Shown here: one piece after another, positions 4,562 through 50,800 of the stretch | Position numbering within the stretch: the stretch's first letter is position 1 | Layout of the letters: each line of letters opens with the position of its first letter | From: Chitinophaga pinensis | Lineage (GTDB): Bacteria > Bacteroidota > Bacteroidia > Chitinophagales > CAIOSU01 | Length of the DNA: 64,000 nucleotides | Direction of reading: 5' to 3' | Assembly: GCA_945901065.1 (NCBI GenBank) | Contig: CAMDKI010000004.1 | Span: forward strand, 103,247-167,246 | Notes under the pieces: generated by a model | Seen by the model: only the letters and a program-made list of their open reading frames with translations | Databases searched by the model: none | What the model was told of the DNA's origin: nothing | Made by a program: the position numbers and the translations under genes

Positions 4562-7183
4562 TTACCCCAACTTAGCCAAACTCTCTTCCAAAGCTTTCAC
4601 TTTAGCTTGTCCGTCGGCTAGCTTTTTACGTTCCGCCTCAACTACTGCTGTAGGAGCGCTGCTTACAAAACGCTCGTTGCTCAATTTACCCTCAACGGAA
4701 CGGATAAAACCCTTAGTATATTCCAACTCTTGTAGCATTTTGGCCCGCTCTTCTTCAGCATCCACTTCTACGCCTGTTGATACAAAGAAACGATCGCTGC
4801 CGGCCATAAAGGCTTGGGCATTGTCAATGTCTTTCTCGGTATACTCAAATACGCCCAGTTTGGCTAATTTGATTATTTGCGGGCGGTATAGCTCGTAAAG
4901 CTCCGTGTTGGCAACTTGACCGTATAGGTCAACAGTGTCCTTTGGCTTCACCTGTTGTTGGTTTCTGATGTCGCGCACGCCGCTTATCATTTCTTTAACC
5001 AACTCAAAGTTGCTCAATAGGGTTTCGTCAACTTCACCAGCCTTTGGCCATTGCGCAACAATTAGGCTATCCTTGGCTTCTCTTGTACCAATGTGTTGCC
5101 AAATATGCTCCGAAATGAAGGGCGTAAATGGGTGCAACAACCTCAACAAATCTTCCAATATCAAGGTTGTTTGCTCCAGGGTATAGGCATCAATTGGGTG
5201 CTGGTACTCTGGTTTTATCATCTCCAAGTACCATGAGCAAAATTCATCCCAAACCAAATTATAAACCGTTAATAATGCTTCGCTTAGGCGATATTGTTCA
5301 AAGCTTTGGTCAATCTGCAAAATGGCCATGTTCAAGCGTTGGCTCATCCATTGAATAGAAGCTTCGTTTTCTTCATTTTTGCCTGGGGTAACTTCCCATC
5401 CTTGTATCAATCGGAAGGCATTCCAAAGCTTATTTGCAAAATTTCGGCCTTGCTCACAAAGCTTATCATCAAACAAAACATCGTTGCCACTTGGTGCACT
5501 AATAAGGATACCCACACGCATGCCATCGGCACCGTATTGCTCTATTAAGGTTAGTGGGTCAGGCGAGTTACCGAGTTGCTTGCTCATTTTACGGCCCTGC
5601 TTATCGCGAACCATGCCCGTAAAATATACATCGTTAAAAGGCTTTTCATCCTTAAACTCGTAACCAGCAATAACCATACGCGCAACCCAGAAGAATATAA
5701 TATCCCATCCGGTAACCAATACATTAGTAGGGTAGTAGTAGTCTACTTCTTCGGGGCCTTCAAAGCCATCAAACACCGAAATAGGCCACAACCAGCTACT
5801 GAACCAAGTATCCAACACGTCCTCGTCTTGGCGCAGATCTGCTGCGGTTACTTTGGTTAAGCCGAACTGCTCCTTAGCCAATTCAATCGCTTCTTCAATG
5901 GTTTCTGCCACTACAAACCTACCATCGCTTAAATAGAACGCCGGTATACGCTGGCCCCACCACAATTGGCGCGAAATAGGCCAGTTGCGGATGTTTTCCA
6001 TCCAGTGCTTATACAAGTTCTTAAAGCTGTCGGGGTGGAAATGGATATTGTCGTTCATTACGTTTTCCAAGGCTGGTTTCACCAACTCTTGCATATCAAC
6101 AAACCACTGCAAGCTCAATCGGGGCTCAACCACCGTATCGGGGTTACGTTCGCTGTAGCCTACTTTGTTTACTATTTCTTCGGTTTTAATAAGCAATCCA
6201 GCGGCTTCAAGGTCGGCCACAATTTGTTTGCGAGCAGCAAATCGGTCTTGACCAATGTATAGCTCACCTGCTTCACTTATCGTTCCGTCAGGGTTCATGA
6301 TATCAATGGTTTCTAGGCCATGCTTTTTGCCTAACTCATAGTCATTTATATCGTGCGCTGGGGTTACCTTTAAGGCACCGGTACCAAACTCACGCTCTAC
6401 ATACTCATCTACTATTAGTGGCACGTGGCGGTTTACCAATGGCACTATAACCTTGCGGTTGTGCAATACGGTGTATCGCTCATCTTCTGGGTGCACGCAC
6501 ACGGCAGTATCGCCTAGCAAGGTTTCGGGGCGAGTAGTGGCAATGGTTATAAAATCTTCAGTGCCCTCTATTACATACTTTATATAGTATAGTTTGGCCT
6601 GCTTGTTCTCTTTATATATTACCTCCTCATTGCTGAGGGTAGTTTGGGCGCGAGGGTCCCAGTTTACCATCTTCAAATCGCGATAGATGTAACCCTTGTT
6701 ATAGAGGTCAACAAACACTTTAACTACTGCAGCATAAAGCTTTGGCTCCATGGTAAAGCGGGTACGCTCCCAATCGCAACTGGCACCCAGTTTTTTCAAC
6801 TGTTCTAGGATAATACCACCGTACTTATCCTTCCATTCATAGGCGTGCACCATGAATGCATCGCGGCCTATATCGCTTTTCTTAATACCTTGCTCGCGCA
6901 GTAGGTTTACCACTTTGGCCTCAGTAGCTATGCTAGCATGGTCGGTGCCGGGCACCCAACAGGCATTAAAGCCCATCATGCGCGCACGACGGATGAGGAT
7001 ATCTTGAATGGTATTGTTGAGCATGTGGCCCATGTGCAACACACCCGTAACATTCGGTGGCGGAATGACGATAGTGAATGGTTCGCGTTCATCGGGCACG
7101 GAGCGGAAAAATCCTTGCTCCATCCAATGTTGATACCATCTGTCTTCTACCTCTTTAGGGTTATAGGTTTTTGCAATTTCCAT
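4562..7183 (-). CDS. valS: valine--tRNA ligase
   Basis: 873 aa, with the PPPNVTGVLHMGH (HIGH) and KMSKQLGN (KMSKS) class I motifs and a C-terminal coiled coil ending KALEESLAKLG. Confidence 0.97.
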   Translation of the reverse strand: MEIAKTYNPKEVEDRWYQHWMEQGFFRSVPDEREPFTIVIPPPNVTGVLHMGHMLNNTIQDILIRRARMMGFNACWVPGTDHASIATEAKVVNLLREQGIKKSDIGRDAFMVHAYEWKDKYGGIILEQLKKLGASCDWERTRFTMEPKLYAAVVKVFVDLYNKGYIYRDLKMVNWDPRAQTTLSNEEVIYKENKQAKLYYIKYVIEGTEDFITIATTRPETLLGDTAVCVHPEDERYTVLHNRKVIVPLVNRHVPLIVDEYVEREFGTGALKVTPAHDINDYELGKKHGLETIDIMNPDGTISEAGELYIGQDRFAARKQIVADLEAAGLLIKTEEIVNKVGYSERNPDTVVEPRLSLQWFVDMQELVKPALENVMNDNIHFHPDSFKNLYKHWMENIRNWPISRQLWWGQRIPAFYLSDGRFVVAETIEEAIELAKEQFGLTKVTAADLRQDEDVLDTWFSSWLWPISVFDGFEGPEEVDYYYPTNVLVTGWDIIFFWVARMVIAGYEFKDEKPFNDVYFTGMVRDKQGRKMSKQLGNSPDPLTLIEQYGADGMRVGILISAPSGNDVLFDDKLCEQGRNFANKLWNAFRLIQGWEVTPGKNEENEASIQWMSQRLNMAILQIDQSFEQYRLSEALLTVYNLVWDEFCSWYLEMIKPEYQHPIDAYTLEQTTLILEDLLRLLHPFTPFISEHIWQHIGTREAKDSLIVAQWPKAGEVDETLLSNFELVKEMISGVRDIRNQQQVKPKDTVDLYGQVANTELYELYRPQIIKLAKLGVFEYTEKDIDNAQAFMAGSDRFFVSTGVEVDAEEERAKMLQELEYTKGFIRSVEGKLSNERFVSSAPTAVVEAERKKLADGQAKVKALEESLAKLG

Positions 7184-7190
7184 AGTGGTG

Positions 7191-7198
7191 CAAAGATA
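7191..7198 (-). promoter_or_regulatory. candidate Bacteroidota -7 promoter box (TATCTTTG) for valS
   Basis: The minus strand reads TATCTTTG, a perfect match to TAnnTTTG, ending 7 nt before the valS ATG. This implies a very short or absent leader. No well-spaced -33 TTG is evident. Confidence 0.4.
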
Positions 7199-7203
7199 AT
7201 GAT

Positions 7204-7405
7204 AGTATCAAGTAGTGAGTATCAAGTATCAAGTATTTTACGATTTACGAGGTACGATTTACGATTGAAAGGCAAATTGAAATAAAAATTAACTACAATA
7301 GTCCCTCCTCACCCAAGGCGAGACAAGCTGTAAATCGTACTTCGTACTCAATTTTAGCGAAAGACATGATGTACTTGATACTTGATACTCACTACTTGCT
7401 ACTAA
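7204..7405. repeat. ~200-bp imperfect long inverted repeat built from heptamer arrays
   Basis: Left arm 7204..7266 is nine in-phase 7-mers (AGTATCA AGTAGTG AGTATCA AGTATCA AGTATTT TACGATT TACGAGG TACGATT TACGATT). Right arm 7330..7350 (GTAAATC GTACTTC GTACTCA) plus 7371..7405 (GTACTTG ATACTTG ATACTCA CTACTTG CTACTAA). Positions 7204..7235 and 7372..7403 are reverse complements with 1 mismatch in 32 nt. The centre carries a degenerate CTCACCCAAGGCGAGACAAGC element. Confidence 0.85.
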
Positions 7406-7464
7406 TCTAGCACAAAGCCCTCTTCATCTAAATAAGTTGGTCAATTGCCCAATTAGCTATATTC

Positions 7465-8166
7465 TTGCTTCGTTCAATAATCAAACCGTTTACCGTGGCA
7501 CAACCAATAATCCGGATTAACAACTTAAATAAGTCCTACCAAATGGGGCACAATAGCTTGCATGTGCTGAAGGGTGTAAATATGCAGGTTAACGAGGGTG
7601 AGATGGTATCCATCATGGGTTCGTCGGGCTCGGGCAAATCAACGCTATTGAACATATTGGGCATATTGGACCAATACGACTCTGGTGAATACTATTTGGG
7701 CGAGTATTTGGTTAAGAACTTATCGCAAGCCAAAGCGGCCAAATACCGCAGCATGCTGGTGGGGTTTGTTTTCCAATCGTTTAACTTGTTGAGTTTTAAA
7801 ACGGCTGCCGAAAACGTTGCCTTGCCGCTATACTACCAAAATGTAAGCCGTAAGCAACGCGACAAAATGGCGTTGGAATATTTGGAGAAAGTAGGCCTGC
7901 GCAATTGGGCCAACCATCTGCCTACAGAAATGAGCGGTGGCCAGCAACAGCGCGTAGCTATTGCCCGAGCCTTGATTAGCAATCCGAAAGTGATATTGGC
8001 CGATGAGCCAACAGGTGCATTGGATACCCAGACCAGCTACGAGGTAATGGAGCTTTTTAAAGCCTTACACCAAGAAGGGAAAACCATCGTAATTGTTACC
8101 CACGAAAACGACATAGCCGCCCTTACCGAAAGGGTTATCAGGCTCAAGGATGGGCAGATTGTTTAA
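7465..8166 (+). CDS. ABC transporter ATP-binding protein (LolD/MacB-type ATPase), no adjacent permease
   Basis: Walker [10 protein letters not shown], signature [15 protein letters not shown]-like ([15 protein letters not shown]), Walker [13 protein letters not shown]-loop VTHE. There is no in-frame ATG near the 5' end; the start is TTG 7465 (track) or GTG 7495. Confidence 0.9.
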
Positions 8167-8167
8167 A

Positions 8168-8283
8168 GTCCACGGTCAACGGACCACTGTCCACAGTTAA
8201 CAGAAAGTATTTTGTCCATACTTAATAAGACATTGCCTTAAAGCTTAATTTTTGCTGTGGACTGTCGACAGTTGACTGTGGAC
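8168..8283. repeat. inverted pair of GTCCACA-type heptamer arrays
   Basis: 8168..8202 reads GTCCACG GTCAACG GACCACT GTCCACA GTTAACA. 8255..8283 reads CTGTGGA CTGTCGA CAGTTGA CTGTGGA CC, roughly its reverse complement (about 24 of 29 by eye). The left array starts 2 nt after the ABC gene's TAA (8164..8166). Confidence 0.8.
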
Positions 8284-8423
8284 CATAAAAAAGAACGAGT
8301 GTTAGTAAGGGTTTGAGTGGTTCTAGTTATCAGTAGGGTTAATTTGGGGGTAAACAAATTATTAATTTTCAGCTACTTGGCTTAAATTTAGGAGCCCAAT
8401 TAATAACCAACCTGCTACCCCCA

Positions 8424-11400
8424 ATGCGAAATTACCTGCTCTTACTTTCACTCGCTACTTTGTGTTTCCTTACAGGATTGTTTTATGCTCAGGGTTTGTC
8501 ATTGCCTATAGTCTCAGATAAACAAACCGAAACGGACAATAAGGATAGGGCCGCCGTAAATAACGTTTACGAAAGCAATGAGACAGACCCTATGCTGCCA
8601 GTGCATGATACTATGGCTGGGGTTACTTGGTCGGCGAATATGGCACCTCAGTATTTTGTGGAGAATTTAGGGCAATTTAATGACCGGTACGAGGGTGCTG
8701 GCAGCGATATACGATTTGCCATTGATGGTGGCGGCACCCAAATTTTTTTTAAGCCAAATGGGGTAGATTATTTTTTTGTAGAGCGAGTTAAAAACCCTGA
8801 CAGAAAAAAGGGAGATATGACAAAACCAAAAAAGGTAAGTAACAGCGACCTTTTTGGTTTTGTGTGGCAAGGTGCAAACCCAGCTGCCGAAATAGTAGGC
8901 AAAGACTTGGGGATGGCATACTACACTTATGCTATGCCAAAGAGACAAAATCCTATCAATCCTACTTTTGATAATGTAAGGGGTTTTGGTAAAATAACTT
9001 ACGAAGGGATATATGAAGGTATTGATGTAGAGTATACCATGCATCCTGAGGGTGGCATGAAGTACTCGTTGGTAGTGAAGCCAGGTGCTGATATTAGCCA
9101 AGTTAAAATGGCTTATCCTGCCGACCGGATGCTAAAGATTGATGAGTCGGGCAAGTTGCTGATAAGTACTTTGTATGGCGATATTGTAGAGCATGCACCA
9201 GTTACTTTTTACAATGGCAGCACCAAAGAACTAATAGCTTCAAAGTTTGTATTGCAAGGCAATGTAGTTTCGTTTGAATTGGAAGATTATGACCATTCTA
9301 GAGGCATCGTTATCGACCCTTGGGTACAAAGCCCTACTTTAACTAGCTCGAATTGTATTTGGGAGTGCGAGAGGGATGCTGCGGGTAACGTTTATGTTAT
9401 TGGTGGCGATGCCCCTATGAAGTTACTGAAATACAATGCTACGGGTACTTTGCTATGGACTTACGTTACGCCTTGGGACGCAACCCCTTCTGCTCCTGGC
9501 GAATCGGATGGTGATTGGCTGGGTAGCTTAGCAACCGATAGAAACGGCAACAGCTATATTACTCGGGGTTCTCTGGCAGCTATCCAAAAAATTAACACGG
9601 CGGGTGCTTTACAATGGAGTGTTGCTGGAACGTTGTTTAGCTCTGATGAGTATTGGACCATAGCCTTCAATTGCGACCAAACGAAGTTGGTTGTGGGTGG
9701 TACGCAGGGTGTTGGGCTCAATATTAAAGGGGCTCTTTTTGATATTAATGCCAGTAATGGTGCTATCATAAGCTATGTAATTGTTGGCACCAACAGGCCA
9801 TCTATTTTGCCGGGTGTGTTTAACGATGCTATGGAGGTTCGCTCCATTAGTTCCTCTCGCAACGGGCGGTATTTTTTTATGACTCTTGACTCGGTAGGTT
9901 CTGTAAATCAGAACTTTAGCGTTTGCAACAATCAGCCGTTATTTAACGAAAGCCACGGATATAAGCTTGGTTACAAATCAGAAGAGTATCGCCCCAGCAC
10001 TGGCAACGGTCCTAATTGTGCCATTAAGGCCAACGACAAATTTGTATACACCCATGGGGGCAATATTGTGCACAAAAGAGATTTAAACACAGGTGTTATT
10101 TTGGCTTCTGCAGCCATACCCGGCGGTATAAGCACCGTGCAATTTGGTTTTAGCCAACCAGGCAACAATGGCATTGATATTGATACTTGTGGGAACGTGT
10201 ATGTAGGCTCTGCGGATAGGGTTATAAAATATGATGCCAATTTGAACGTAATTTCTTCGGTAAATTTGCCGTTTCGTGCATTTGACGTGGCGGTTACCAC
10301 GGGCGGCGAAATTATTGTTTGTGGTGGAACGGGCACCTCATCAAGCACTACCCGCACGGGCTATGTGCAAGTATTAAACATGAATGCTTGCCCACAGTTT
10401 ACGCTAATTTGCTGCGATGCTACTATCTGCCCTGCTGGCCCAATTTGCGACATTGCCCCACCAATTACGCTCAACGCAGTAACCCCTGGTGGGGTGTGGA
10501 GTGGCCCGGGCATTACCAATACCACCACTGGCCAGTTCACCCCATCTGCAGCAGGCCCTGGAGTGCATCGCATTATATACACCCTTCCTTGCGGTCTTGA
10601 TTCAACTTTTATAACCGTTAATGCTTGCGCCAACCTAACGGTTTGTGTGCAGCCCAACGGAGACTACACCGTTTCAAATGGCACTGGTCCATACACTTGG
10701 CAGCGTGGAACACCATTTCAAAATTGCACAGGTTGCCCGCTAGGCAACTGTATTCCATTTATTTGTGCCGGTTTTGCTGACACCACTTGGACCACTTTTT
10801 CTACTAATACCACCGTTACGCCGCCGGGTACTTTTCCTATAAGAGTTACCGATGCAGCAGGCAACCGATTACGCATAACCAGTGCAGCCGGTATACCGCC
10901 CTGCACCACCTGCCCCAACATTACTACCACTATTACCAGCCAAACCAATATATCTTGCTCCCAGCCTACTGGCAGCGCCACGGTAAGCGCCAATGGCGGC
11001 ACAGCACCATACACTTACAATTGGCAGCCGGGCAACTTGAACGGTGCTGGGCAAACGGGCCTTGGGGCGGGTGCATACACCGTAATAGCTACCGATGCGG
11101 CAAGTTGTAAGGATACGCTAATAGTTACCATAACCAGTAGTGGCTCTATACCGAGTGTAACAGTTGCCACCACGCCTACTACTTGTGCCTTGGCCAATGG
11201 CTCAGCTACCGCAAACGTTACGGGTGGAACAGCACCATTTACCTATGCTTGGAGCCCCGGCGGTGGAAGCACCCAAACCATAACCAACCGAGCTTCGGGT
11301 ACATATACCGTTACGGTTACTGGTGTGGGTGGTTGCACGGCAACCGCACAGGGTACTATTGCCACATCTAGCGGCTTTACTACTGCGGTTACTACTACGC

Positions 11401-14240
11401 CATCAACTTGTACTGCTAATAATGGCACGGCTACGGCTATTAATACTGGTGGTACTAGTCCGTTTACCTATAGTTGGTCTCCGAGTGGTGGTAGTGCGGC
11501 TACCGCCAACAACTTGGCCCCAGGCCCATACACAGTGCAGGTAAACGATGGGAATGGATGCACAGCAACGGCTTCGGGCACAGTTACACAATCATCGGGT
11601 ACTTTGGCATTGAGCCTTACCAACCCCGTGAACCCTACTTGTGCTGGCAATAATGGCAGTATTACAGCTGGGTTGAGCGGCGGCACCGCGCCTTACACCG
11701 TAACCATTGATACAGGCGGCACCCCAATTGTGGTAAATGTGCCTTTTGCCATTAGCCAAACCATAAGCAACCTACCAGATGGCACCGTGAATGTTACGGT
11801 GGTTGATGCTCAAGGTTGCCAAGTGAGCAATTCGGCAACGTTGGCAGCACCTAACTGTTGCACGTTTACTGTATCAGCAGCACTTACGCAACCTACTTGT
11901 GGGCAAAGCAACGGTAGTATAGTGCTTACCGCTGCCAACGGCTCGGGTAACTACACCTACGCTTGGGCCAATGGCTCGGGCGCAGGCACCACAGCGAGCG
12001 GCATTGGTGCTGGCACTTATAGCGTAACCATTACCGATAATGGATTTGCGAACTGCTTTAAGGATACCACCTTTACCTTAAACTCAAACAGTAACTTAAG
12101 CCTTAGCCTTACCAACCCAGTAAACCCTACTTGTGCAGGGAATGACGGTAGCATAACTGCAACGCTCAGTGGCGGCACGGCCCCTTACACTGTAACTATT
12201 GACACCGGCGGTGCACCAATTGTGGTGAATGTGCCATTTGCCATTAGCCAAACCATAACCAACCTACCGGATGGCACAGTCAACGTAAGTGTGGTGGATG
12301 CGCAAGGTTGCCAAGCGAGCAATTCTGCCACGTTGGTTGCGCCAAACTGTTGCACGTTTACAGTATCGGCTGCACTTACCCAACCTACTTGTGCGCAGAG
12401 CAATGGTAGTATTGTTATTACACCGGCTAATGGTTCGGGCAACTACACTTATGTTTGGGCTAATGGTTCGGGTACCGGTAACACTGCCAATAACATTGGT
12501 GCGGGTGTTTACAATGTTACCATTACCGACAATGGCGTGGCCAACTGCTTTATTGATACTACATTTACCCTTACTTCAAACAGTTCATTGGCAATAAGCC
12601 TTACCAATCCTGTGAACCCAACTTGTGCGGGCAATGATGGTAGCTTAACTGTTGGGCTAAGTGGAGGCACTGCACCATACACCGTAACTATTGACACCGG
12701 AGGTACGCCATTTGTAATTAATGTACCTGTTGCTATATCGCAAACCCTTACCAACTTACCTGCAGGTACAGTGAACGTAACAGTAGCTGATGCTCAAGGT
12801 TGCCAAGCAAATAATACCGTAACATTAACTGCTCCAGCCAATTGCTGCTCTTTTAATATTTTGGCTGCTATTACCCAGCCAGCATGCGGGTTGAGTGATG
12901 GTAGCATAGTTATTACTCCGGCAAACGGCTCAGGGAACTATACTTACACTTGGGCCAATGGCTCAGGAACAGGCACAACGGCCAACAACCTAGCCGCTGG
13001 CAACTTTGCGGTAACCATTACCGACAATGGTTTTGCCAATTGCTTTATCGATACCTCATTTGCTTTAATCAATGCAAATGCACCAGCGATTGGGCTGGTC
13101 TCGCAAACCAATGTGGCATGCGCTGGAGATGCAACGGGTGCTATTACCGTCCAGGTTTCGGGTGGCACGGCGCCTTTTACAGTACTATGGAGCAATGGCG
13201 ATACCACGCTTGCCGTAAACGGTTTGGCCGATGGCGCTTATACGGTTTCGGTTACCGATGCCAATAGTTGTGCCTCAAATGCAACTTTTACCATTGCCGC
13301 GGGCACTGTGCTAGTATTGCAAACTATCATGACACCTATTGATTGCAACAACCCTAACGGCGGTAGCGCTGGTGTGGCCGTTACGGGTGGCACAGCACCA
13401 TACACCTATCTATGGAGCAATGCAGCTACTGCATCAACCCTAACGAATGTTACCGTTGGAACTTATACCGTGACTGTTACCGATGCGCAAGGGTGCGTGG
13501 CAGTTGATTCAGTTACTGTTACCGGCGACAGCATAGCTTCGTTTAGTCTTGGCCCTGATTTAACTATTTGTTTTGGCGATTCGTTAGTGTTAGGAACTGG
13601 CTTGGTTGGCACCGTATGGTCCACGGGCGATACGAGCGATTATTTGCTGGTAACTGATGCAGGGGTTTATATCGGAAGTATCTCCAATGGCAATTGCGCG
13701 AATAGTGACACCGTGAGTGTTTCAGTGGAGCAAATACCAAACGTTCCGCAATTGAATGTAAATGATACTATTGTTTGCGCAAGTGAAACCGTAATATTGC
13801 GGGTAGGCGATGAGGGTTATCTCTATGTTTGGTCAACGGGCGATACCGCGAGTCAAATTGTGGTGGATACACCAGGTATCTACATCGTTTCAGCCATAAA
13901 TGACTGTGGCGAAGTAAGCGCTGAGGCGTTGGTTACCGATGAAAACTGCGCTTGCCGCCTTTATTTGCCCAATGCTTTTTCTCCAAATGCCGATGGTGCG
14001 AACGATGTATTTAAAGCGTATAGCGTTTGTACTTACATTGAGGAATTTAACTTAACCGTCTTTGATAGATGGGGTGGGGTGGTATACAAATCGAACGACT
14101 TTATGGAGGTTTGGAACGGCACAAGTAAAGGCAAGGCATGCATACCGGGCGTATATGTTTATAGTTTGAGTTACCTTTCTCGCGAGAATGGTGTGCGCCA
14201 AATATATAGGCAGAAGGGCAGTGTTACTCTGTTGAGGTAG
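8424..14240 (+). CDS. giant cell-surface adhesin-like protein with beta-propeller (SBBP-type) repeats, SprB-type repeats and a T9SS type B (gliding-motility-associated) C-terminal sorting domain
   Basis: 1938 aa. It has a signal peptide (LLLLSLATLCFLTGLFYAQG) and SBBP-like motifs (DAAGNVYVIGG, DRNGNSYITRG, DTCGNVYVGSAD). Many ~75-aa units carry C-x-G/N-x-NGSATV-x-x-x-GGTAPYTY-x-W (SprB repeat pattern). The C-terminus YLPNAFSPNADGANDVFKAY...FDRWGGVVYKS...WNGT...GVYVYSL is the type B sorting-domain pattern. Confidence 0.9.
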   Translation: MRNYLLLLSLATLCFLTGLFYAQGLSLPIVSDKQTETDNKDRAAVNNVYESNETDPMLPVHDTMAGVTWSANMAPQYFVENLGQFNDRYEGAGSDIRFAIDGGGTQIFFKPNGVDYFFVERVKNPDRKKGDMTKPKKVSNSDLFGFVWQGANPAAEIVGKDLGMAYYTYAMPKRQNPINPTFDNVRGFGKITYEGIYEGIDVEYTMHPEGGMKYSLVVKPGADISQVKMAYPADRMLKIDESGKLLISTLYGDIVEHAPVTFYNGSTKELIASKFVLQGNVVSFELEDYDHSRGIVIDPWVQSPTLTSSNCIWECERDAAGNVYVIGGDAPMKLLKYNATGTLLWTYVTPWDATPSAPGESDGDWLGSLATDRNGNSYITRGSLAAIQKINTAGALQWSVAGTLFSSDEYWTIAFNCDQTKLVVGGTQGVGLNIKGALFDINASNGAIISYVIVGTNRPSILPGVFNDAMEVRSISSSRNGRYFFMTLDSVGSVNQNFSVCNNQPLFNESHGYKLGYKSEEYRPSTGNGPNCAIKANDKFVYTHGGNIVHKRDLNTGVILASAAIPGGISTVQFGFSQPGNNGIDIDTCGNVYVGSADRVIKYDANLNVISSVNLPFRAFDVAVTTGGEIIVCGGTGTSSSTTRTGYVQVLNMNACPQFTLICCDATICPAGPICDIAPPITLNAVTPGGVWSGPGITNTTTGQFTPSAAGPGVHRIIYTLPCGLDSTFITVNACANLTVCVQPNGDYTVSNGTGPYTWQRGTPFQNCTGCPLGNCIPFICAGFADTTWTTFSTNTTVTPPGTFPIRVTDAAGNRLRITSAAGIPPCTTCPNITTTITSQTNISCSQPTGSATVSANGGTAPYTYNWQPGNLNGAGQTGLGAGAYTVIATDAASCKDTLIVTITSSGSIPSVTVATTPTTCALANGSATANVTGGTAPFTYAWSPGGGSTQTITNRASGTYTVTVTGVGGCTATAQGTIATSSGFTTAVTTTPSTCTANNGTATAINTGGTSPFTYSWSPSGGSAATANNLAPGPYTVQVNDGNGCTATASGTVTQSSGTLALSLTNPVNPTCAGNNGSITAGLSGGTAPYTVTIDTGGTPIVVNVPFAISQTISNLPDGTVNVTVVDAQGCQVSNSATLAAPNCCTFTVSAALTQPTCGQSNGSIVLTAANGSGNYTYAWANGSGAGTTASGIGAGTYSVTITDNGFANCFKDTTFTLNSNSNLSLSLTNPVNPTCAGNDGSITATLSGGTAPYTVTIDTGGAPIVVNVPFAISQTITNLPDGTVNVSVVDAQGCQASNSATLVAPNCCTFTVSAALTQPTCAQSNGSIVITPANGSGNYTYVWANGSGTGNTANNIGAGVYNVTITDNGVANCFIDTTFTLTSNSSLAISLTNPVNPTCAGNDGSLTVGLSGGTAPYTVTIDTGGTPFVINVPVAISQTLTNLPAGTVNVTVADAQGCQANNTVTLTAPANCCSFNILAAITQPACGLSDGSIVITPANGSGNYTYTWANGSGTGTTANNLAAGNFAVTITDNGFANCFIDTSFALINANAPAIGLVSQTNVACAGDATGAITVQVSGGTAPFTVLWSNGDTTLAVNGLADGAYTVSVTDANSCASNATFTIAAGTVLVLQTIMTPIDCNNPNGGSAGVAVTGGTAPYTYLWSNAATASTLTNVTVGTYTVTVTDAQGCVAVDSVTVTGDSIASFSLGPDLTICFGDSLVLGTGLVGTVWSTGDTSDYLLVTDAGVYIGSISNGNCANSDTVSVSVEQIPNVPQLNVNDTIVCASETVILRVGDEGYLYVWSTGDTASQIVVDTPGIYIVSAINDCGEVSAEALVTDENCACRLYLPNAFSPNADGANDVFKAYSVCTYIEEFNLTVFDRWGGVVYKSNDFMEVWNGTSKGKACIPGVYVYSLSYLSRENGVRQIYRQKGSVTLLR
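11605..13080 (+). repeat. three tandem 492-nt (164-aa) near-identical repeat units inside the adhesin gene
   Basis: The LTNPVNPTCAGN(N/D)GS anchors start at nt 11617, 12109 and 12600/12601. Each unit reads LSLTNPVNPTCAGNDGSITA.LSGGTAPYTVTIDTGG.P.V.NVP.AISQT..NLP.GTVNV.V.DAQGCQ..N..TL.AP.CC.F...AA.TQP.C..S.GSIV.T.ANGSGNYTY.WANGSG.G.TA....AG...VTITDNG.ANCF.DT.F.L. Unit boundaries are arbitrary. Confidence 0.85.
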
Positions 14241-21777: not shown

Positions 21778-22245
21778 CTATTTCAAATTCTTCGAATAAA
21801 AGGGCAAAGGCAGCAATTCTTTAATGGAGCCAATAGCATAAACCGTTTCATCACCGCCTTTAAGCAGCACACGTATCGGGTTTTCTTGTCGGCTTTCTTG
21901 CTCCAAAAGAGCTTGGCGGCACATACCGCAAGGGGCAGCGGCTTCGGTGCCAACGCTCACGGCTATTGCATTTACCGTTTTACCTGGATGGTTTATTGCA
22001 AAGTTGGCTAAGGCCGTGCGCTCGGCACAAAGACCTAATGGAAAAGAGGCGTTCTCTTGGTTGCTGCCCTCTACTATGGTGCCATCATTAAGCAACAAGG
22101 CAGCCCCAACGGGGTAGTGGCTGTATGGCGAATGCGAGTGGCGCATGGCTCCTCGGCTGCGTTGCAATAACTCAGCATCGGCAGGCACCAACTCATTGTT
22201 GTGCTCATAAACGGTTATATAGGTGGTGTGTTCTATTTGCTTCAT
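21778..22245 (-). CDS. cdd: cytidine deaminase
   Basis: SHSPYSHYPVGAALLLNDG, CAERTAL and PCGMCRQAL zinc-binding motifs (C-A-E and P-C-x-x-C). Confidence 0.9.
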   Translation of the reverse strand: MKQIEHTTYITVYEHNNELVPADAELLQRSRGAMRHSHSPYSHYPVGAALLLNDGTIVEGSNQENASFPLGLCAERTALANFAINHPGKTVNAIAVSVGTEAAAPCGMCRQALLEQESRQENPIRVLLKGGDETVYAIGSIKELLPLPFYSKNLK

Positions 22246-22368
22246 GGTGGCGAATATTATTTATCGGTTATTAGTTATTGGTGGGTAAGAATCGTCGGTG
22301 TTCAAAAAAATATCCGAACCACAAGCAATCAACCAATAACCAGTAAAACCAATAACCTAAATTAAAAG

Positions 22369-22376
22369 TAGCTTTG
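22369..22376 (+). promoter_or_regulatory. candidate -7 promoter box (TAGCTTTG)
   Basis: Perfect TAnnTTTG match 21 nt upstream of the ATG at 22398. No clear -33 TTG. Confidence 0.35.
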
Positions 22377-23771: not shown

Positions 23772-23796
23772 ATTAACTTGCCTCGCCTTGGGCGAA
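23772..23796 (-). repeat. inverted copy of the CTCGCC-CAA-GGCGAG / GCAAGCTAAT element
   Basis: The reverse complement of 23772..23806 reads CCAATCAACC TTCGCCCAAGGCGAGGCAAGTTAAT. The core differs at 1-2 positions from the groES-upstream unit. Confidence 0.75.
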
Positions 23797-23906
23797 GGTT
23801 GATTGGAAAGGCCAAAGGCCATTTTAAGCTCCTCCCCATTTTAGGGGGAGGTTGGGAGGGGGTAATGGTCGGGCGCTACATTTGCCTTTCTATTATTACC
23901 CTTGCC

Positions 23907-32383: not shown

Positions 32384-32401
32384 GTGGCAAAGATACTAAT
32401 A

Positions 32402-32739
32402 GCTTGCCTCGTTTCAAACGAGGGACCACAGTCCACCGTCCATGGTCGACAGAAAAAAGAATGCAAGTTGGATAGAGATTAAAAATTCAAAATTTAAAAT
32501 TCAAAATTAGGAATGAGCGTAGGTTATACCGCCGTTCAAAAACTTTTAACTTACTTTGTTTCTGTCAGTGACTAGTGAATAGTAACTAGCGACTAGATAT
32601 AAAAAAGACTCATTAAACATTTAAGCGCAGTGCTGATTTTTTTCGCTTCGAAATACACCTCCCTAACCCTCCTTCCTAGGAGGGAAGTGTTGTTGGGTAT
32701 TTTAAAGTCTTGATACTTGATACTCAATACTCAATACTG
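32402..32739. repeat. cluster of four different heptamer arrays plus two hairpin elements in one divergent intergenic region
   Basis: GCTTGCCTCGTTTCAAACGAGG hairpin (32402..32423). Four arrays: 32424..32451 (GACCACA GTCCACC GTCCATG GTCGACA), 32483..32510 (AAATTCA AAATTTA AAATTCA AAATTAG), 32566..32600 (CAGTGAC TAGTGAA TAGTAAC TAGCGAC TAGATAT) and 32709..32739 (CTTGATA CTTGATA CTCAATA CTCAATA CTG). Palindrome CCCTCCTTCCTAGGAGGGAAG around 32668..32690. Confidence 0.85.
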
Positions 32740-34180: not shown

Positions 34181-34302
34181 GCCCCAAGGGGGCACAACAA
34201 TACTAGCGTCGGGCACCGCCCGACGTACGCATTGGGTTTCCGGAAATGCAATTTGTATATAGGGCGATGCCCTATTCTATTAGTATCTGACCCCTTTGGG
34301 GT
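34181..34302. repeat. series of five short GC-rich palindromes/hairpins between convergent genes
   Basis: GCCCCAAGGGGGC (34181..34193), CGTCGGGCACCGCCCGACG (34207..34225), TTTCCGGAAA (34237..34246), ATAGGGCGATGCCCTAT (34259..34275) and ACCCCTTTGGGGT (34290..34302). Confidence 0.75.
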
Positions 34303-39772: not shown

Positions 39773-39812
39773 GGCGAGTAGCTTATAGCATATGGTTCGT
39801 TGTACCCCAAAA

Positions 39813-39900
39813 ACCCTCGCCCAAGGCGAGGCAAGCTAATACCCCTCGCCCAAGGCGAGGCAAGCTAATAACCCTCGCCCAAGGCGAGGCAAGCTAATAA
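39813..39900 (+). repeat. three tandem 28-30-nt units ACCCTCGCCCAAGGCGAGGCAAGCTAATA, each a 7-bp stem hairpin
   Basis: Units at 39813..39840, 39841..39870 and 39871..39900. Each has the stem CCTCGCC/GGCGAGG with a CAA loop. There are no unique spacers between units. Confidence 0.9.
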
Positions 39901-39925
39901 CCAATCAACCAATCAACCAATCAAC
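39901..39925. repeat. CCAATCAA octamer x3
   Basis: CCAATCAA CCAATCAA CCAATCAA C, directly following the third 30-nt unit. Confidence 0.85.
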
Positions 39926-40308: not shown

Positions 40309-40343
40309 GGTTACGGGTTCCGAGTTACGGGTTGCGAGTTTGC
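40309..40343. repeat. five in-phase degenerate heptamers (GGTTACG type)
   Basis: GGTTACG GGTTCCG AGTTACG GGTTGCG AGTTTGC, starting 4 nt after the groES TAA (40303..40305). Confidence 0.8.
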
Positions 40344-40362
40344 AATAAACCAACGACCAGTA

Positions 40363-40390
40363 ACCCTCGCCCAAGGCGAGGCAAGCTAAT

Positions 40391-40392
<2 letters not shown>
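40363..40392 (+). repeat. fourth copy of the ACCCTCGCCCAAGGCGAGGCAAGCTAATAA unit (groES-groEL spacer)
   Basis: Identical to the 39871..39900 unit by eye. Confidence 0.9.
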
Positions 40393-42994: not shown

Positions 42995-43069
42995 ATGTAG
43001 CATCTGGCAAATACCAGGTAAACGAACTACTTGTTAATGCTTGTAAAGAGTGTCCCCTGCCCGCACTAA

Positions 43070-43220
43070 CCACCCCCAACCCCTTCCTTCGATCTCGTTT
43101 GAAACGAGACTCAGGACAGGCTCTTTTGCATCCGCTCAAAAAGGCCATTCGAAGCCTGCCTGCGGCAGGCAGGCTTCGCCGAGCCAGTGCAGCGCTGGCA
43201 AAAGGAGGGGTTGGGGGTGG
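43070..43220. mobile_element. 151-bp MITE-like non-coding element with perfect 15-bp terminal inverted repeats
   Basis: CCACCCCCAACCCCT (43070..43084) and AGGGGTTGGGGGTGG (43206..43220) are exact reverse complements. Inside are the hairpin TCTCGTTTGAAACGAGA (43093..43109) and the 27-nt palindrome GAAGCCTGCCTGCGGCAGGCAGGCTTC (43151..43177). There is no coding capacity, and the track ORFs across it read both strands of the palindrome. Confidence 0.6.
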
Positions 43221-43233
43221 TTGCACATAATTC

Positions 43234-45783: not shown

Positions 45784-45797
45784 CCGTGGCGAAAATT

Positions 45798-45847
45798 AGT
45801 CTTGTGTCTTGTGTCTTGCCGGCCGGCAGGCAGGTTGTGTCTTGCGT
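45798..45847. repeat. GTCTTGT-type heptamers flanking a 12-nt palindrome, abutting the fabI stop codon
   Basis: AGTCTTG TGTCTTG TGTCTTG (45798..45818), the palindrome TGCCGGCCGGCA (45816..45827), then TGTCTTG CGTC up to the fabI stop (45848..45850). Confidence 0.7.
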
Positions 45848-47865: not shown

Positions 47866-50800
47866 ATGAAACTTAACCGTCTGCTATTGGCAGCGTGTCT
47901 ACTGACATGTTGTTTATTTTCATGGCGCGAGGCAAGGGCCTCTCACGCCGCTGGAGCTGACCTAACCTACACTTGTTTAGGTAACAACCAATACCAAATT
48001 ACGCTCACGTTCTATCGCGATTGTAGTGGTATTGCAGCACCTGCAACAGCCGCAGTATCTGTTCTCAATGGTTGTACCAACACTACCACAAACATTACCC
48101 TACAACAGCAGGGCTTTGTTGAGGTAACTCAATTGTGCCCTTCACAAATTGGCAATAGCTCTTGTAACGGAGGCAACCTACCCGGTATACAGCAGTATAC
48201 ATACACCGGTACGTTTACTTTCCCAGCGAGTTGTACCAATTTTACGTTGAGGTATGATTTGAATGCCAGGAACGCGGCAGTGACTAACCTACAGAACCCC
48301 GGTTCGGTAGATTTGTACGTTGAAGCTACTTTGCGCGGCATTACACCAAACATCTGCAACAACTCGTCTATTTTCACCTCTTTGCCCGTGCCATTTGTGT
48401 GCGTGGGCAACCAGTTTTTTTATAACCATGGTGCTATTGACGTGGATGGTGACTCATTGGTTTATACCTTGATTCAGCCATTGCAAGATCCTGGTACTGT
48501 GGTGCCTTGGGCAGCGGGCTATAGTGTAGCAAATCCGATGGCCACAACTAGCGGATTTTCTTTTAGCAATTCTACCGGTCAAATGTCAGGTACCCCAAGC
48601 ATTGCTCAAAACGCAGCTATTGCGGTTCGTGTTGATGAGTACCGTAACGGCGTGTTGATTGGTTCTACCATTCGCGATATGCAGTTTATTGCTGTAGCTT
48701 GTCCTAACAACACTTTGCCAATCGCATCGGGTGTTAACGGCAGCACGGATTACAGTATAAACGTTTGTGCTGGTAGCAACTTCTGTTTCGACATTTTCAC
48801 GACAGACGTTGACGCGAACCAAACAACCACCATTACCTGGAACTCAGGTATTAACGGTGCAACTTTTACTTCTAGCGCAGGCAATAACCAAACAGGTACT
48901 TTCTGCTGGACTCCAAGTATTAGCCAAGTGCGCACCGCACCTTACATTTTTACTGTTACGGTGCAAGATAATGCCTGCCCAAGTGTAGGTAACCAAGTAT
49001 ACTCTTACTCGGTATTTGTAGGTGGTTTGGATGTTGACCTAGGACCCGATTTGAATCTTTGTGCTACATCTGCTACTTTGAGCCCGCTGGTTACCAATGG
49101 CACTGGTGTGTATACTTATGCTTGGAGCAATGGCTCTACCGACTCAACTTTGGTAGTTACACAATCGGGCTCTTACTCAGTTACTATAACTGATGGAACT
49201 GGCTGCAGTGGAAGCAACCAAATTAATGTAAACCTTAACCCGAACGGCAACCGCAACCTTATTTCGTTTAACGATACCACTGTTTGCCCAGGTGTAGCTG
49301 TTACGTTTGATGCAGGAACAGGCTTTAGCACTTATTTGTGGAGCACTGGTGCTACAACTCAAGTTATTACCACGTCTACTCCAGGAGTGATTACTGTAGA
49401 AGCTGCTGATGCTCTTGGCTGTACTTCTCGTGATACGGTTACTTTACTTAACAGTAATAATGCAACCGTAAGCCTTGGCAATGATACTGCATTGTGCAGT
49501 GGTGGTTCATATACCTTCTTTGCTAGTCCATCTAACTTTGCATCTTATTTGTGGAGCGACGGCAGCACATCGCCATCGCTTACTGTAAACACTACTGGCG
49601 TATACTCGGTAACTGTTACTACTGCGGCAGGTTGCACCGCTTCTGATACTGCTCGCTACACTGCGTTTTCGTTGCCATCGGTGACCCTTGGTCCTGATGT
49701 GCGTACTTGTAATAGCTCTGTTACATTGCAATTGCGTCGTGCTGGTACATTTGAGTATGTATGGAGCACTGGTAGCACTTTGCCATCTATTTCGGTAACA
49801 CAATCAGGTTGGTATGGTCTTACTTTGACCGAAATTACCAGCCGTTGTGCGGCTTACGATAGCATTTACGTGAGCGTAAGTGCCTTGCCGGGCATCAACC
49901 TAATACCCGACACGTTGGTTACCGCTTGTGGTGGGATAGTGCCTGGCACCAATGGTGTAGCACTTAATGCTGTTCCGGGTTTAGGTTCTTACCTATGGAG
50001 CAATGGTGCTACTACTGCTAGCACTACTGTTTTCCAAAACGGATTGTACACCTTGACCGTAACAGATAGTATTGGCTGCACCAAAACCGATTCCATTTCG
50101 GTTGTTGCCAGTTCTGCTATTACTATTACAGACGTGAGCACCAGCCCATGCGCGCCTTCATCAGCTACTATTGATATAACTGTTGCTGGTGGTTTGGCTC
50201 CATTTACCTTTAGCTGGAGCGGCCCAAGTGGTTTCACCGCCTCAAGCGAAGACCTTTCAGGCTTGAACATTGGTACATACGAAGTAGTAGTAACCGATGC
50301 TGCGGGTTGTACAGGCAGCCACGTGGTTACGCTTGCTTTGCCTTCAATTACTATTGATGCGGGACCAGATACGGTGAACATTTGCTTAGGTGATAGCACC
50401 ACACTTTCTGCAACTGGTGCCTCTTTCTATGACTGGAACGGTGGTAGCTTGGTAAATGCTAGCGGTTCCTCTGTTTCGGTTAGTCCTACTCAAACTACTA
50501 CATATACGGTAGTTGGTCAGCAACCAGGCCAAGAGCTTGCAGCTAACGGAGATTTTGAATTGGGCAACACTGGTTTTGTTACTAACTACCAATATACTAC
50601 TACCAATTTAATACCTGAAGGTACTTATGCCGTCGTAACTAACCCAACTCCTTTGCACCCAGCCTTCCTTGGTAGCGACCACACAACTGGTAGCACCAAC
50701 TTTATGGCTATCAATGGCTCTGTTAACCCTGGTTTCAGGGTATGGTGCCAAACCGTATCGGTTATCCCGAACACGGACTATAACTTCTCTACTTGGATCA

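Follow-up and report, generated by a model that had tools for sequence, protein, structure and literature searches.

The 64-kb stretch of Bacteroidota DNA analysed here, called the window throughout, carried a long inverted repeat made of heptamer arrays at 7203-7404. The repeat filled most of the spacer between two divergent genes, valS and a gene for the ATPase of an ATP-binding cassette (ABC) transporter. It lay between two predicted core promoters and touched the valS one, in agreement with an earlier reading made from the sequence only (the sequence-only reading), which had described a valS -7 box at 7191..7198 and had placed the element between two divergent promoters. The features of the locus, together with a third copy of the arm found elsewhere in the window, were as follows.

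4562..7183, minus strand: valS, valine-tRNA ligase, 873 aa, with the Pfam domains tRNA-synt_1, Anticodon_1 and Val_tRNA-synt_C; the exact protein was present on ENA contig k141_568765; the gene faces the left arm.
7191..7198, minus strand: predicted valS -7 box TATCTTTG, in agreement with TAnnTTTG, the consensus for Bacteroidota; it lies 7 nt before the ATG and forms a conserved border on the left of the cassette.
7200..7407, no strand: replaceable intergenic cassette, the sole unalignable part of the valS-ABC spacer between species.
7203..7235, minus strand: left outer arm, a 33-nt heptamer box that reads TACTTGA TACTTGA TACTCAC TACTTGA TACTA toward valS (inverted repeat I1).
7239..7266, no strand: left inner heptamer array, TACGATT TACGAGG TACGATT TACGATT, found in the same order after the same box at locus L140.
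7303..7329, plus strand: decayed copy of a dispersed 29-nt hairpin repeat, CCCTCGCCCAAGGCGAGGCAAGCT, with intact copies at 39816, 39845, 39874 and 40366.
7330..7350, plus strand: right inner heptamer array, GTAAATC GTACTTC GTACTCA, which pairs in inverted orientation with the left inner array (inverted repeat I4).
7372..7404, plus strand: right outer arm, the second copy of the 33-nt box, pointing toward the ABC gene.
7408..7494, plus strand: predicted promoter and leader region of the ABC gene, conserved in the window and in the relatives L085 and L086.
7495..8166, plus strand: ABC transporter ATPase, LolD/MacB-like; start corrected to GTG 7495 (database call, ATG 7543).
32707..32738, plus strand: third, unpaired box copy, CTTGATA CTTGATA CTCAATA CTCAATA CTG, 7 nt upstream of the ATG (32745) of an amino-acid transporter gene.

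The outer arms (7203-7235 and 7372-7404, 33 nt each) were detected by a repeat finder and paired at 32 of 33 positions, being 97% complementary with one mismatch and separated by 136 nt. Inside them, inner arms of 17 nt (7246-7262 and 7330-7346) paired at 16 of 17 positions (94%). Both pairings had been claimed by the sequence-only reading, for 7204..7235 with 7372..7403 and for the TACGATT array with 7330..7350, and both were borne out. Tandem Repeats Finder located period-7 arrays at 7204-7236 (AGTATCA), 7237-7266 (TTTACGA) and 7372-7389 (TACTTGA). The right inner and right outer arms were themselves related, 7321-7350 being 73% identical to 7362-7391 over 30 nt (direct repeat D1). The centre at 7303-7329 had the sequence CCCTCCTCACCCAAGGCGAGACAAGCT and was a decayed version of the 29-nt unit CCCTCGCCCAAGGCGAGGCAAGCTAAT; the 15-nt pattern of the unit matched 7308-7322 with one mismatch, in line with the decayed hairpin copy that had been proposed there. 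The intact unit occurred three times in tandem at 39812-39902 and once at 40366, and the groES-groEL spacer (40311-40387) aligned with 7245-7329 at 69%. No open reading frame (ORF) of at least 50 aa was found inside the element; a 115-aa frame at 6938-7285 merely entered it from within valS.

Folding of 7190-7420 gave energies of -46.9 kcal/mol as DNA and of -79.8 and -83.7 kcal/mol as RNA for the two strands. The z-scores were -10.8 for DNA, -10.8 for the RNA of the plus strand and -8.2 for that of the minus strand, none of 200 shuffled sequences being as stable, and the suspected potential for a very long hairpin was thereby confirmed. An 18-mer of the arm had seven matches in the window, against 0.05 expected. 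The identical sequence was present in the 722-kb ENA metagenome contig k141_568765, and two independent Logan contigs of the same strain both broke within the arms, as an inverted repeat exceeding the k-mer would lead one to expect. The inverted repeat is neither a chance product nor an assembly artefact.

The valS upstream regions of five related species were compared with that of the window:

L085: 97% ValS amino-acid identity, 88% valS nucleotide identity.
L088: 94% ValS amino-acid identity, 84% valS nucleotide identity.
L003: 90% ValS amino-acid identity, 80% valS nucleotide identity.
L086: 88% ValS amino-acid identity, 81% valS nucleotide identity.
L087: 87% ValS amino-acid identity, 79% valS nucleotide identity.

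The gene order SprB-ABC-valS was kept in L085 and L086. In the three-way alignment of these two loci with the window, conservation ended at ...GCAAAGATA and resumed at TCTAGCACAAAGCCC, and the block in between (7200-7407) was unalignable and co-extensive with the inverted repeat. Both flanks of this block remained conserved where valS nucleotide identity was 81-88%. The alignment shows 7200-7407 as a discrete cassette, replaced as a unit between species in a fixed slot between the predicted core promoters. The valS -7 box beside it was kept in L085, L086, L087 and L088, and L003 had TATATTTG. In all five orthologues, a heptamer array directly adjoined the -7 box. It was (AGACACA)n with a T-run beside the -7 box in L085, L086, L087 and L003 (GTCTTGY-type on the sense strand), and the layout in L085, TAG followed by 4.5 units and then the T-run, was the same as that of the window arm. 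The array of L088 was of the TACTTGA type, and the left arm of the window was identical to it at 31 of 31 positions, up to the end of the L088 contig. On the other side, CTCATTT / GTCATTT arrays in L085 and a CATCTGT array in L086 pointed at the ABC gene.

A unit of this kind could be a mobile cassette resembling a miniature inverted-repeat transposable element (MITE), as the sequence-only reading had suggested, that is, a non-autonomous element of about 200 bp with the 33-nt boxes as terminal inverted repeats, which inserted into or replaced an earlier occupant of the spacer. The insertion-like character of that claim stood, since the variable block was bounded exactly by an inverted repeat with 97% complementary arms. 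The arm was also unchanged between species with 16% divergence in valS, assemblies broke at the arms, and the box was common to the window and the more distant L088 and not to the closer relative L085, which had another heptamer. The distribution of the box at valS thus conflicts with the valS gene tree. The hallmarks of transposition, however, did not follow. The flanks of the element (GATAATGA / ATCTAGCA) showed no target-site duplication, and the search for an empty site in related genomes, which had been proposed as a check, found none among the five orthologous loci, where the slot was always filled by some heptamer array.

The same comparison bears on the hairpin. When hairpin conservation was tested in the orthologous cassettes of L085 and L086, the hairpin was weak or absent: the L085 cassette had a 12-bp terminal stem alone (GACACAAGAC / GTCTTGTGTC) with a DNA fold z of -2.3, and the z of the L086 cassette was -0.3. 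Complementarity arises only where both sides carry the same heptamer family, and what is conserved is the presence of heptamer arrays facing valS and the ABC gene, not the hairpin. A conserved regulatory role for the hairpin or cruciform that had been envisaged is therefore unlikely. A functional DNA cruciform or RNA hairpin co-regulating the divergent valS and ABC promoters would agree with the very strong predicted stability, and negative supercoiling between divergent promoters would favour cruciform extrusion; the 136-nt spacer between the outer arms, on the other hand, is unfavourable for extrusion, and orthologous cassettes with the same flanks showed a weak tendency to form a hairpin, or none. 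Given the promoters as predicted, neither mRNA would contain the hairpin. An intrinsic terminator was rejected as well, the A+T-rich stem lying between divergent gene starts with a T-run before it and an A-run, not a T-run, after it. No Rfam family matched at gathering scores in the whole window, and 7100-7600 searched at E up to 10 gave one chance-level match. Co-regulation through such a structure is highly improbable in our view.

The arm by itself proved to be a dispersed and oriented element. A search with the arm 20-mer CAAGTAGTGAGTATCAAGTA gave exact matches in 106 contigs of JGI metagenomes, drawn from many samples, where chance would give about one match, a rough order-of-magnitude estimate as the size of the collection is unstated; these contigs were chosen by the box query itself. 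Conservation extended beyond the 20-mer (T-run, AGTATCA AGTAGTG AGTATCA AGTATCA AGAC or AGTA), and the box comprised about 33 nt, with five heptamers followed by an A-run, reading (G)TCTTGA-TACTTGA-TACTCAC-TACTTGA-TACTA on the sense strand of the gene. Exactly five units were present in 56 of the 110 arrays. A long ORF with an ATG at most 35 nt downstream followed 46 of 118 matches in the forward sense and one of 118 in the reverse, and a looser pattern applied to all 191 loci gave 64 forward and 5 reverse cases. Twenty-nine of the 110 arrays ended 0-8 nt before an ATG, usually after TACTAAAAA, and the left arm of the window sat 20 nt from the valS ATG. The genes downstream were unrelated housekeeping genes, e.g. 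ftsA-like, ackA, murE, der, tsaD, atpD, leuC, kdsA, lptB and rnhB.

The box-bearing metagenome contigs were probably mostly from Bacteroidota, although their taxonomy is weakly established. Their median G+C content was 37%, and an FtsA-like protein from sample Ga0209628, the largest contributor of contigs, had one named homologue, from a Prevotellaceae bacterium, with 39% identity; a SusC-like fragment from the metagenome contigs had no NCBIfam match. The arm had no megablast match in plasmid and phage collections. A scan of viral contigs returned one match, to the same contig as the metagenome locus L136; this box-bearing contig (Ga0209628_10000104, 45 kb, loci L136 and L195) is also held in IMG/VR as viral. 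The boxes disrupt short-read assembly and mislead gene-start calls.

Heptamer repeats were not restricted to this box. Arrays of period 7 or 14 made up 24 of the 38 tandem-repeat rows of the window, and 20 of the 23 merged arrays lay in the non-coding 15%; their density was 0.27 per kb, compared with 0.054 per kb over a set of 79 other valS loci from Bacteroidota. This dominance, the many distinct heptamer families and the rapid turnover of the slot between species are what a neutral or selfish expansion would produce, in which arrays arise by polymerase slippage, persist where their place and orientation are harmless, and have no function, the inverted repeat being derived from a local inverted duplication. 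The forward TACTTGA units hold TGA in all three frames, as read from the sequence, and heptamers are documented as over-represented in bacteria (PMC4692102). Slippage, however, should give length variation and drift, whereas a fixed five-unit box with a constant order of variants recurred across samples, and it was identical in species with 84% valS identity. The GTCTTGY arrays of the same slot are without stop codons, so that a stop filter cannot explain their orientation, and the share of arrays ending 0-8 nt before an ATG exceeds that of random placement in spacers. A purely neutral origin is accordingly doubtful to us.

Pairing of the boxes had a fixed direction. Among arrays at most 300 nt apart, 20 outward-facing pairs (AGTATCA...TACTTGA) and no inward-facing pairs were found, and 15 distinct pairs remained after the removal of duplicate contigs. 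An inverted partner was present for 38 of the 110 arrays. The interiors of the 15 distinct pairs were 6-136 nt long and, save for window-L140 (partial) and L162-L169, unrelated. At L140, beside tsaD, the box was followed by TACGCAG TACGATT TACGAGG TACGATT, by AAATTGAAT... and by the inverted box, with a fold z of -7.1; the TACGATT array there leads into AAATTGAA... before the inverted box. This related composite in another gene context is the best evidence that some composite blocks may have been copied between loci, and it is a further point for a MITE-like cassette. Such a cassette is at odds with the otherwise unrelated interiors, with the 72 of 110 boxes that had no partner within 300 nt, and with the strict start-codon polarity, which is unexpected for a transposon. 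No target-site duplication was found around the pairs, which were flanked merely by T-runs and A-runs, and no second full-length copy of the element was found in the 64-kb window or the other fetched loci. No transposase was identified either, though no genome-wide search was made for one. A classical MITE was rejected: the element is short and non-coding and has terminal inverted repeats, but target-site duplication, shared interior and empty site were not found among the loci compared. A mobile cassette of a less classical kind seems to us unlikely. In two of the 15 pairs (L101 and L176), a consensus -7 box lay such that the complete hairpin, between this box and the start codon, would be in the 5' untranslated region (5'UTR) of the adjacent gene, a point for a hairpin function; the strict consensus was absent in the other 13.

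We favour, with moderate confidence, the reading that the inverted repeat represents two outward-facing copies of an oriented gene-start box, each acting on the gene that it faces, with the hairpin as a by-product. Because valS and the ABC gene are divergent, the two box copies are reverse complementary and could form a hairpin; each box would affect the gene it faces by a route other than the long hairpin. The outer boxes would be nested around older relatives of themselves (CTTCGTA / AATCGTA), with the decayed 29-nt hairpin repeat at the centre. The element consists of head-to-tail 7-nt tandem units, non-coding and dispersed, in forward orientation near gene starts; it is a new family and a new arrangement of the known intergenic heptanucleotide direct repeats, of the short tandemly repeated repetitive (STRR) or TAACTGA type.

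As to mechanism, the box could serve as a landing site for a protein that recognises single-stranded nucleic acid and covers about 7 nt of it, either on the leader RNA or on promoter-proximal DNA. This model is preferred because of the strict strand polarity, the 7-nt register, the proximity to start codons and a sequence that stays constant from lineage to lineage. Candidate factors would be ribosomal protein S1 and proteins of the cold-shock type, which were put forward as binders of the TAACTGA repeats. A cold-shock domain contacts about 7 nt of a pyrimidine-rich single strand and is reported to prefer sequences close to GTCTTTG. The GTCTTGY units found as the alternative allele of the valS slot resemble this preference, which is a lead only. 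A pyrimidine-rich sense strand did not hold for every array, e.g. TAACAAA and AACCAAT, and was discarded as a general property. At valS, the box upstream of the predicted -7 box would fill the region from -15 to -50, including the -33 position. The box as the source of a properly spaced -33 TTG for valS was unsupported, the spacings being 10, 24 and 31 nt, against an expected 19-21 nt.

Several observations weigh against two acting gene-start boxes. A consensus -7 box stood between box and ATG at valS, so the box would be outside the mRNA there; most of the metagenome boxes must be in the leader, and a single mechanism may not account for the two placements. The right arm was about 90 nt from the ABC start, farther than usual, and in most metagenome pairs a gene start could be detected on just one side. 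The 100% identity of the arm across 16% valS divergence, together with the gene-tree conflict, fits mobility as well as function. The hairpin may also matter at the RNA level in some loci, such as L101 and L176. A bolder version of the gene-start box, which we put forward as speculation with a low chance of holding in full, is that the 33-nt TACTTGA/TACTCAC box is a portable, strand-specific leader module for a single-strand-binding factor conserved in Bacteroidota. Such a module would spread between loci and among distantly related Bacteroidota, slots such as valS-ABC would swap whole cassettes, paired boxes would give optional 5' hairpins, and the whole would form a phylum-wide layer of control in organisms without initiation driven by Shine-Dalgarno sequences.

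The start of the ABC gene is almost certainly GTG 7495, not ATG 7543, because the species differences upstream of 7543 fell on third codon positions in the alignment of the window, L085 and L086, and because the 223-aa version matched the profiles of LolD and DarD starting at their positions 1-2. The call at ATG 7543 removes the conserved N-terminus, and the L085 orthologue is called from a TTG equivalent to 7465. A candidate ABC promoter was read from the sequence at 7437-7467, with a -33 TTG at 7437-7439, a distance of 20 nt and a -7-like TATTCTTG at 7460-7467. Promoter function is suggested by the motif match here and by the consensus match for the valS -7 box. The next spacer (8167-8298), between the ABC stop and a SprB-like gene, held a GTCCACN inverted repeat, AGTCCAC GGTCAAC GGACCAC TGTCCAC ... 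CTGTGGA CTGTCGA CAGTTGA CTGTGGAC, with a z of -3.9; its counterpart in L085 had GTTACTA / AACCAAT arrays between conserved flanks. The gene order near valS was broken at 87-97% ValS identity (L003 5870-5935, L085 6623-7537, L087 2695-3353), valS having a different upstream neighbour in L003 and L087 and a different downstream one in L085. In L003, a short insert, caaagcttgtcaccctgagcgtagtcgaacgg, lay between direct GTACGATGTG heptamer remnants.

The window organism belongs to Bacteroidota, and its giant proteins carry SprB and CHU_C domains. The closest genome by ValS was a metagenome-assembled genome (MAG) labelled Sphingobacteriales, with 90% identity, and the next relatives reached just 65%. 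Two genes encoded products of about 1,935 aa (8424-14240 and 47866-53670); DUF7948, SprB and CHU_C domains were found in the product of 8424-14240, a gene that also contains a tandem repeat of 492 nt (11613-13061, 2.9 copies).

Other spacers of the window were also rich in repeats. Between a cytidine deaminase gene (21778-22245, minus strand) and a divergent gene starting at 22374, outward arrays of the AACCAAT / AACTAAT type (22250-22360) were each near their own gene start; a -7 box, TAGCTTTG, followed the right array, and the hairpin was weak (z = -0.85). Small hairpin repeats with the frame CCCTCG-loop-CGAGGCAAGCT occurred at 39812-39902, 40366-40392, 23776-23800, 32400-32425 and 43088-43110. 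This family had three tandem 29-nt units at one site, some reversed or loop-variant copies, a copy between heptamer arrays in the groES-groEL spacer, and no copy in the other fetched loci. The palindrome CGGATTGCAAATCCG was present in eight copies, against 0.14 expected (23940, 30360, 30442, 30471, 42208, 42237, 45740 and 45769), including three doublets spaced by exactly 29 nt, the period of the CCCTCGCC repeat array, and looks like a repetitive extragenic palindromic (REP) element. At 45796-45845, a GTCTTGT array, the valS-slot heptamer of the relatives, was broken by a small G+C-rich insert, CCGGCCGGCAGGCAGGTT; a similar sequence, GCCTGCCTGCGGCAGGCAGGC, was also found at 43150-43170. Long imperfect spacer palindromes were present at 43068-43222, with 22-nt arms (AACCACCCCCAACCCCTTCCTT / AAAGGAGGGGTTGGGGGTGGTT) 111 nt apart and small hairpins nested inside, and at 34182-34301 (120 nt, 70% complementarity). 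Long unrelated heptamer arrays were found at the valS loci of other Bacteroidota MAGs (L065 3799-3873, L072 2120-2241, L040 487-598 and 4549-4626, L058 11964-12320), some of them forming inverted pairs (GGGCTTA / TAAGCCC-type, GGTTTCC / AAACCTG). Heptamer arrays reach beyond the lineage of the window.

Translation in Bacteroidota begins without pairing to a Shine-Dalgarno sequence, and the signals that mark the start sites are understood only in part. The box is a concrete candidate for a start-site recognition element because the same sequence occurred across samples and lineages, nearly always pointed at a start codon and preceded housekeeping genes. If the leader-module reading were true, a post-transcriptional or promoter-proximal layer of control would extend across the phylum. 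Outward-facing boxes would also account simply for the long inverted repeats, cruciform-like in appearance, that separate divergent genes in such genomes, and they caution against taking such repeats as regulatory hairpins or MITEs. To our knowledge, the published TAACTGA case has had no follow-up.

Among known systems, the closest is that of the TAACTGA repeats. These occur in forward orientation, a few nucleotides before the start codons of genes that are unrelated and in many cases essential, and were described in Beggiatoaceae, Cyanobacteria and five Bacteroidetes, with ribosomal protein S1, cold-shock proteins and CsrA proposed as binding factors (MacGregor 2015, Front Microbiol, PMC4679880). 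The arrays described here are likewise intergenic tandem heptamers with strict forward orientation near starts, in spacers with several families of heptamers; the repeats interrupt contigs, forward-sense stops occur in all frames, and TAACTGA resembles TACTTGA. In contrast, the heptamer differs, and a fixed five-unit box with a constant TACTCAC variant replaces runs of identical units. Inverted pairs were rare among the TAACTGA repeats (169 direct sets and one 'indirect' repeat; PMC4679880), whereas here they involved 38 of 110 arrays and always faced outward. Exact TAACTGA arrays were not found in the fetched loci. Cyanobacterial STRR sequences comprise CCCCAGT and others. Several dispersed intergenic heptamer families, variation in length and sequence at orthologous sites and some inverted pairs capable of forming stem-loops are shared with these and with the heptameric long simple-sequence repeats, including GGGAATC / GGGGAYT of Xanthomonas and Nostoc, for whose 7-nt units an origin by slippage was proposed (Mrazek et al. 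2007, PMC4692102). The latter are G-rich and discussed as quadruplex formers, unlike the arrays here, and no strict start-codon polarity was reported for them.

Small size, lack of coding capacity, bounding inverted repeats, hairpin formation, dispersal and assembly breaks are features in common with MITEs and with REPINs, the hairpin-forming doublets of REP sequences (PMC3116915). An inverted doublet was indeed present; the single arm, however, is a direct heptamer array and not a palindrome as in REP, the arms are usually single, target-site duplication, conserved interior and empty site were not found in the loci compared, and a transposase associated with the box is not known. Nostoc small dispersed repeats nested in heptamer arrays were reportedly described by Elhai et al. 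in 2008 (Genome Res). Hairpin repeats of 21-29 nt in or beside heptamer arrays, forming nested mosaics, were seen here too, as CCCTCGCCCAAGGCGAGGCAAGCT in the element, GGCCGGCAGGCAGG in the GTCTTGT array at 45796-45845 and the GTACGATGTG-flanked insert in L003, although the phylum and the sequences are others. Finally, the hmw adhesin genes of Haemophilus influenzae have 7-bp repeats upstream whose number tunes expression via the 5'UTR (PMC12721329, PMC8262952). They share with the present arrays the position of heptamers between promoter and start codon, but the hmw repeats are contingency loci of variable copy number at surface-protein genes, whereas the box has a fixed copy number and precedes housekeeping genes.

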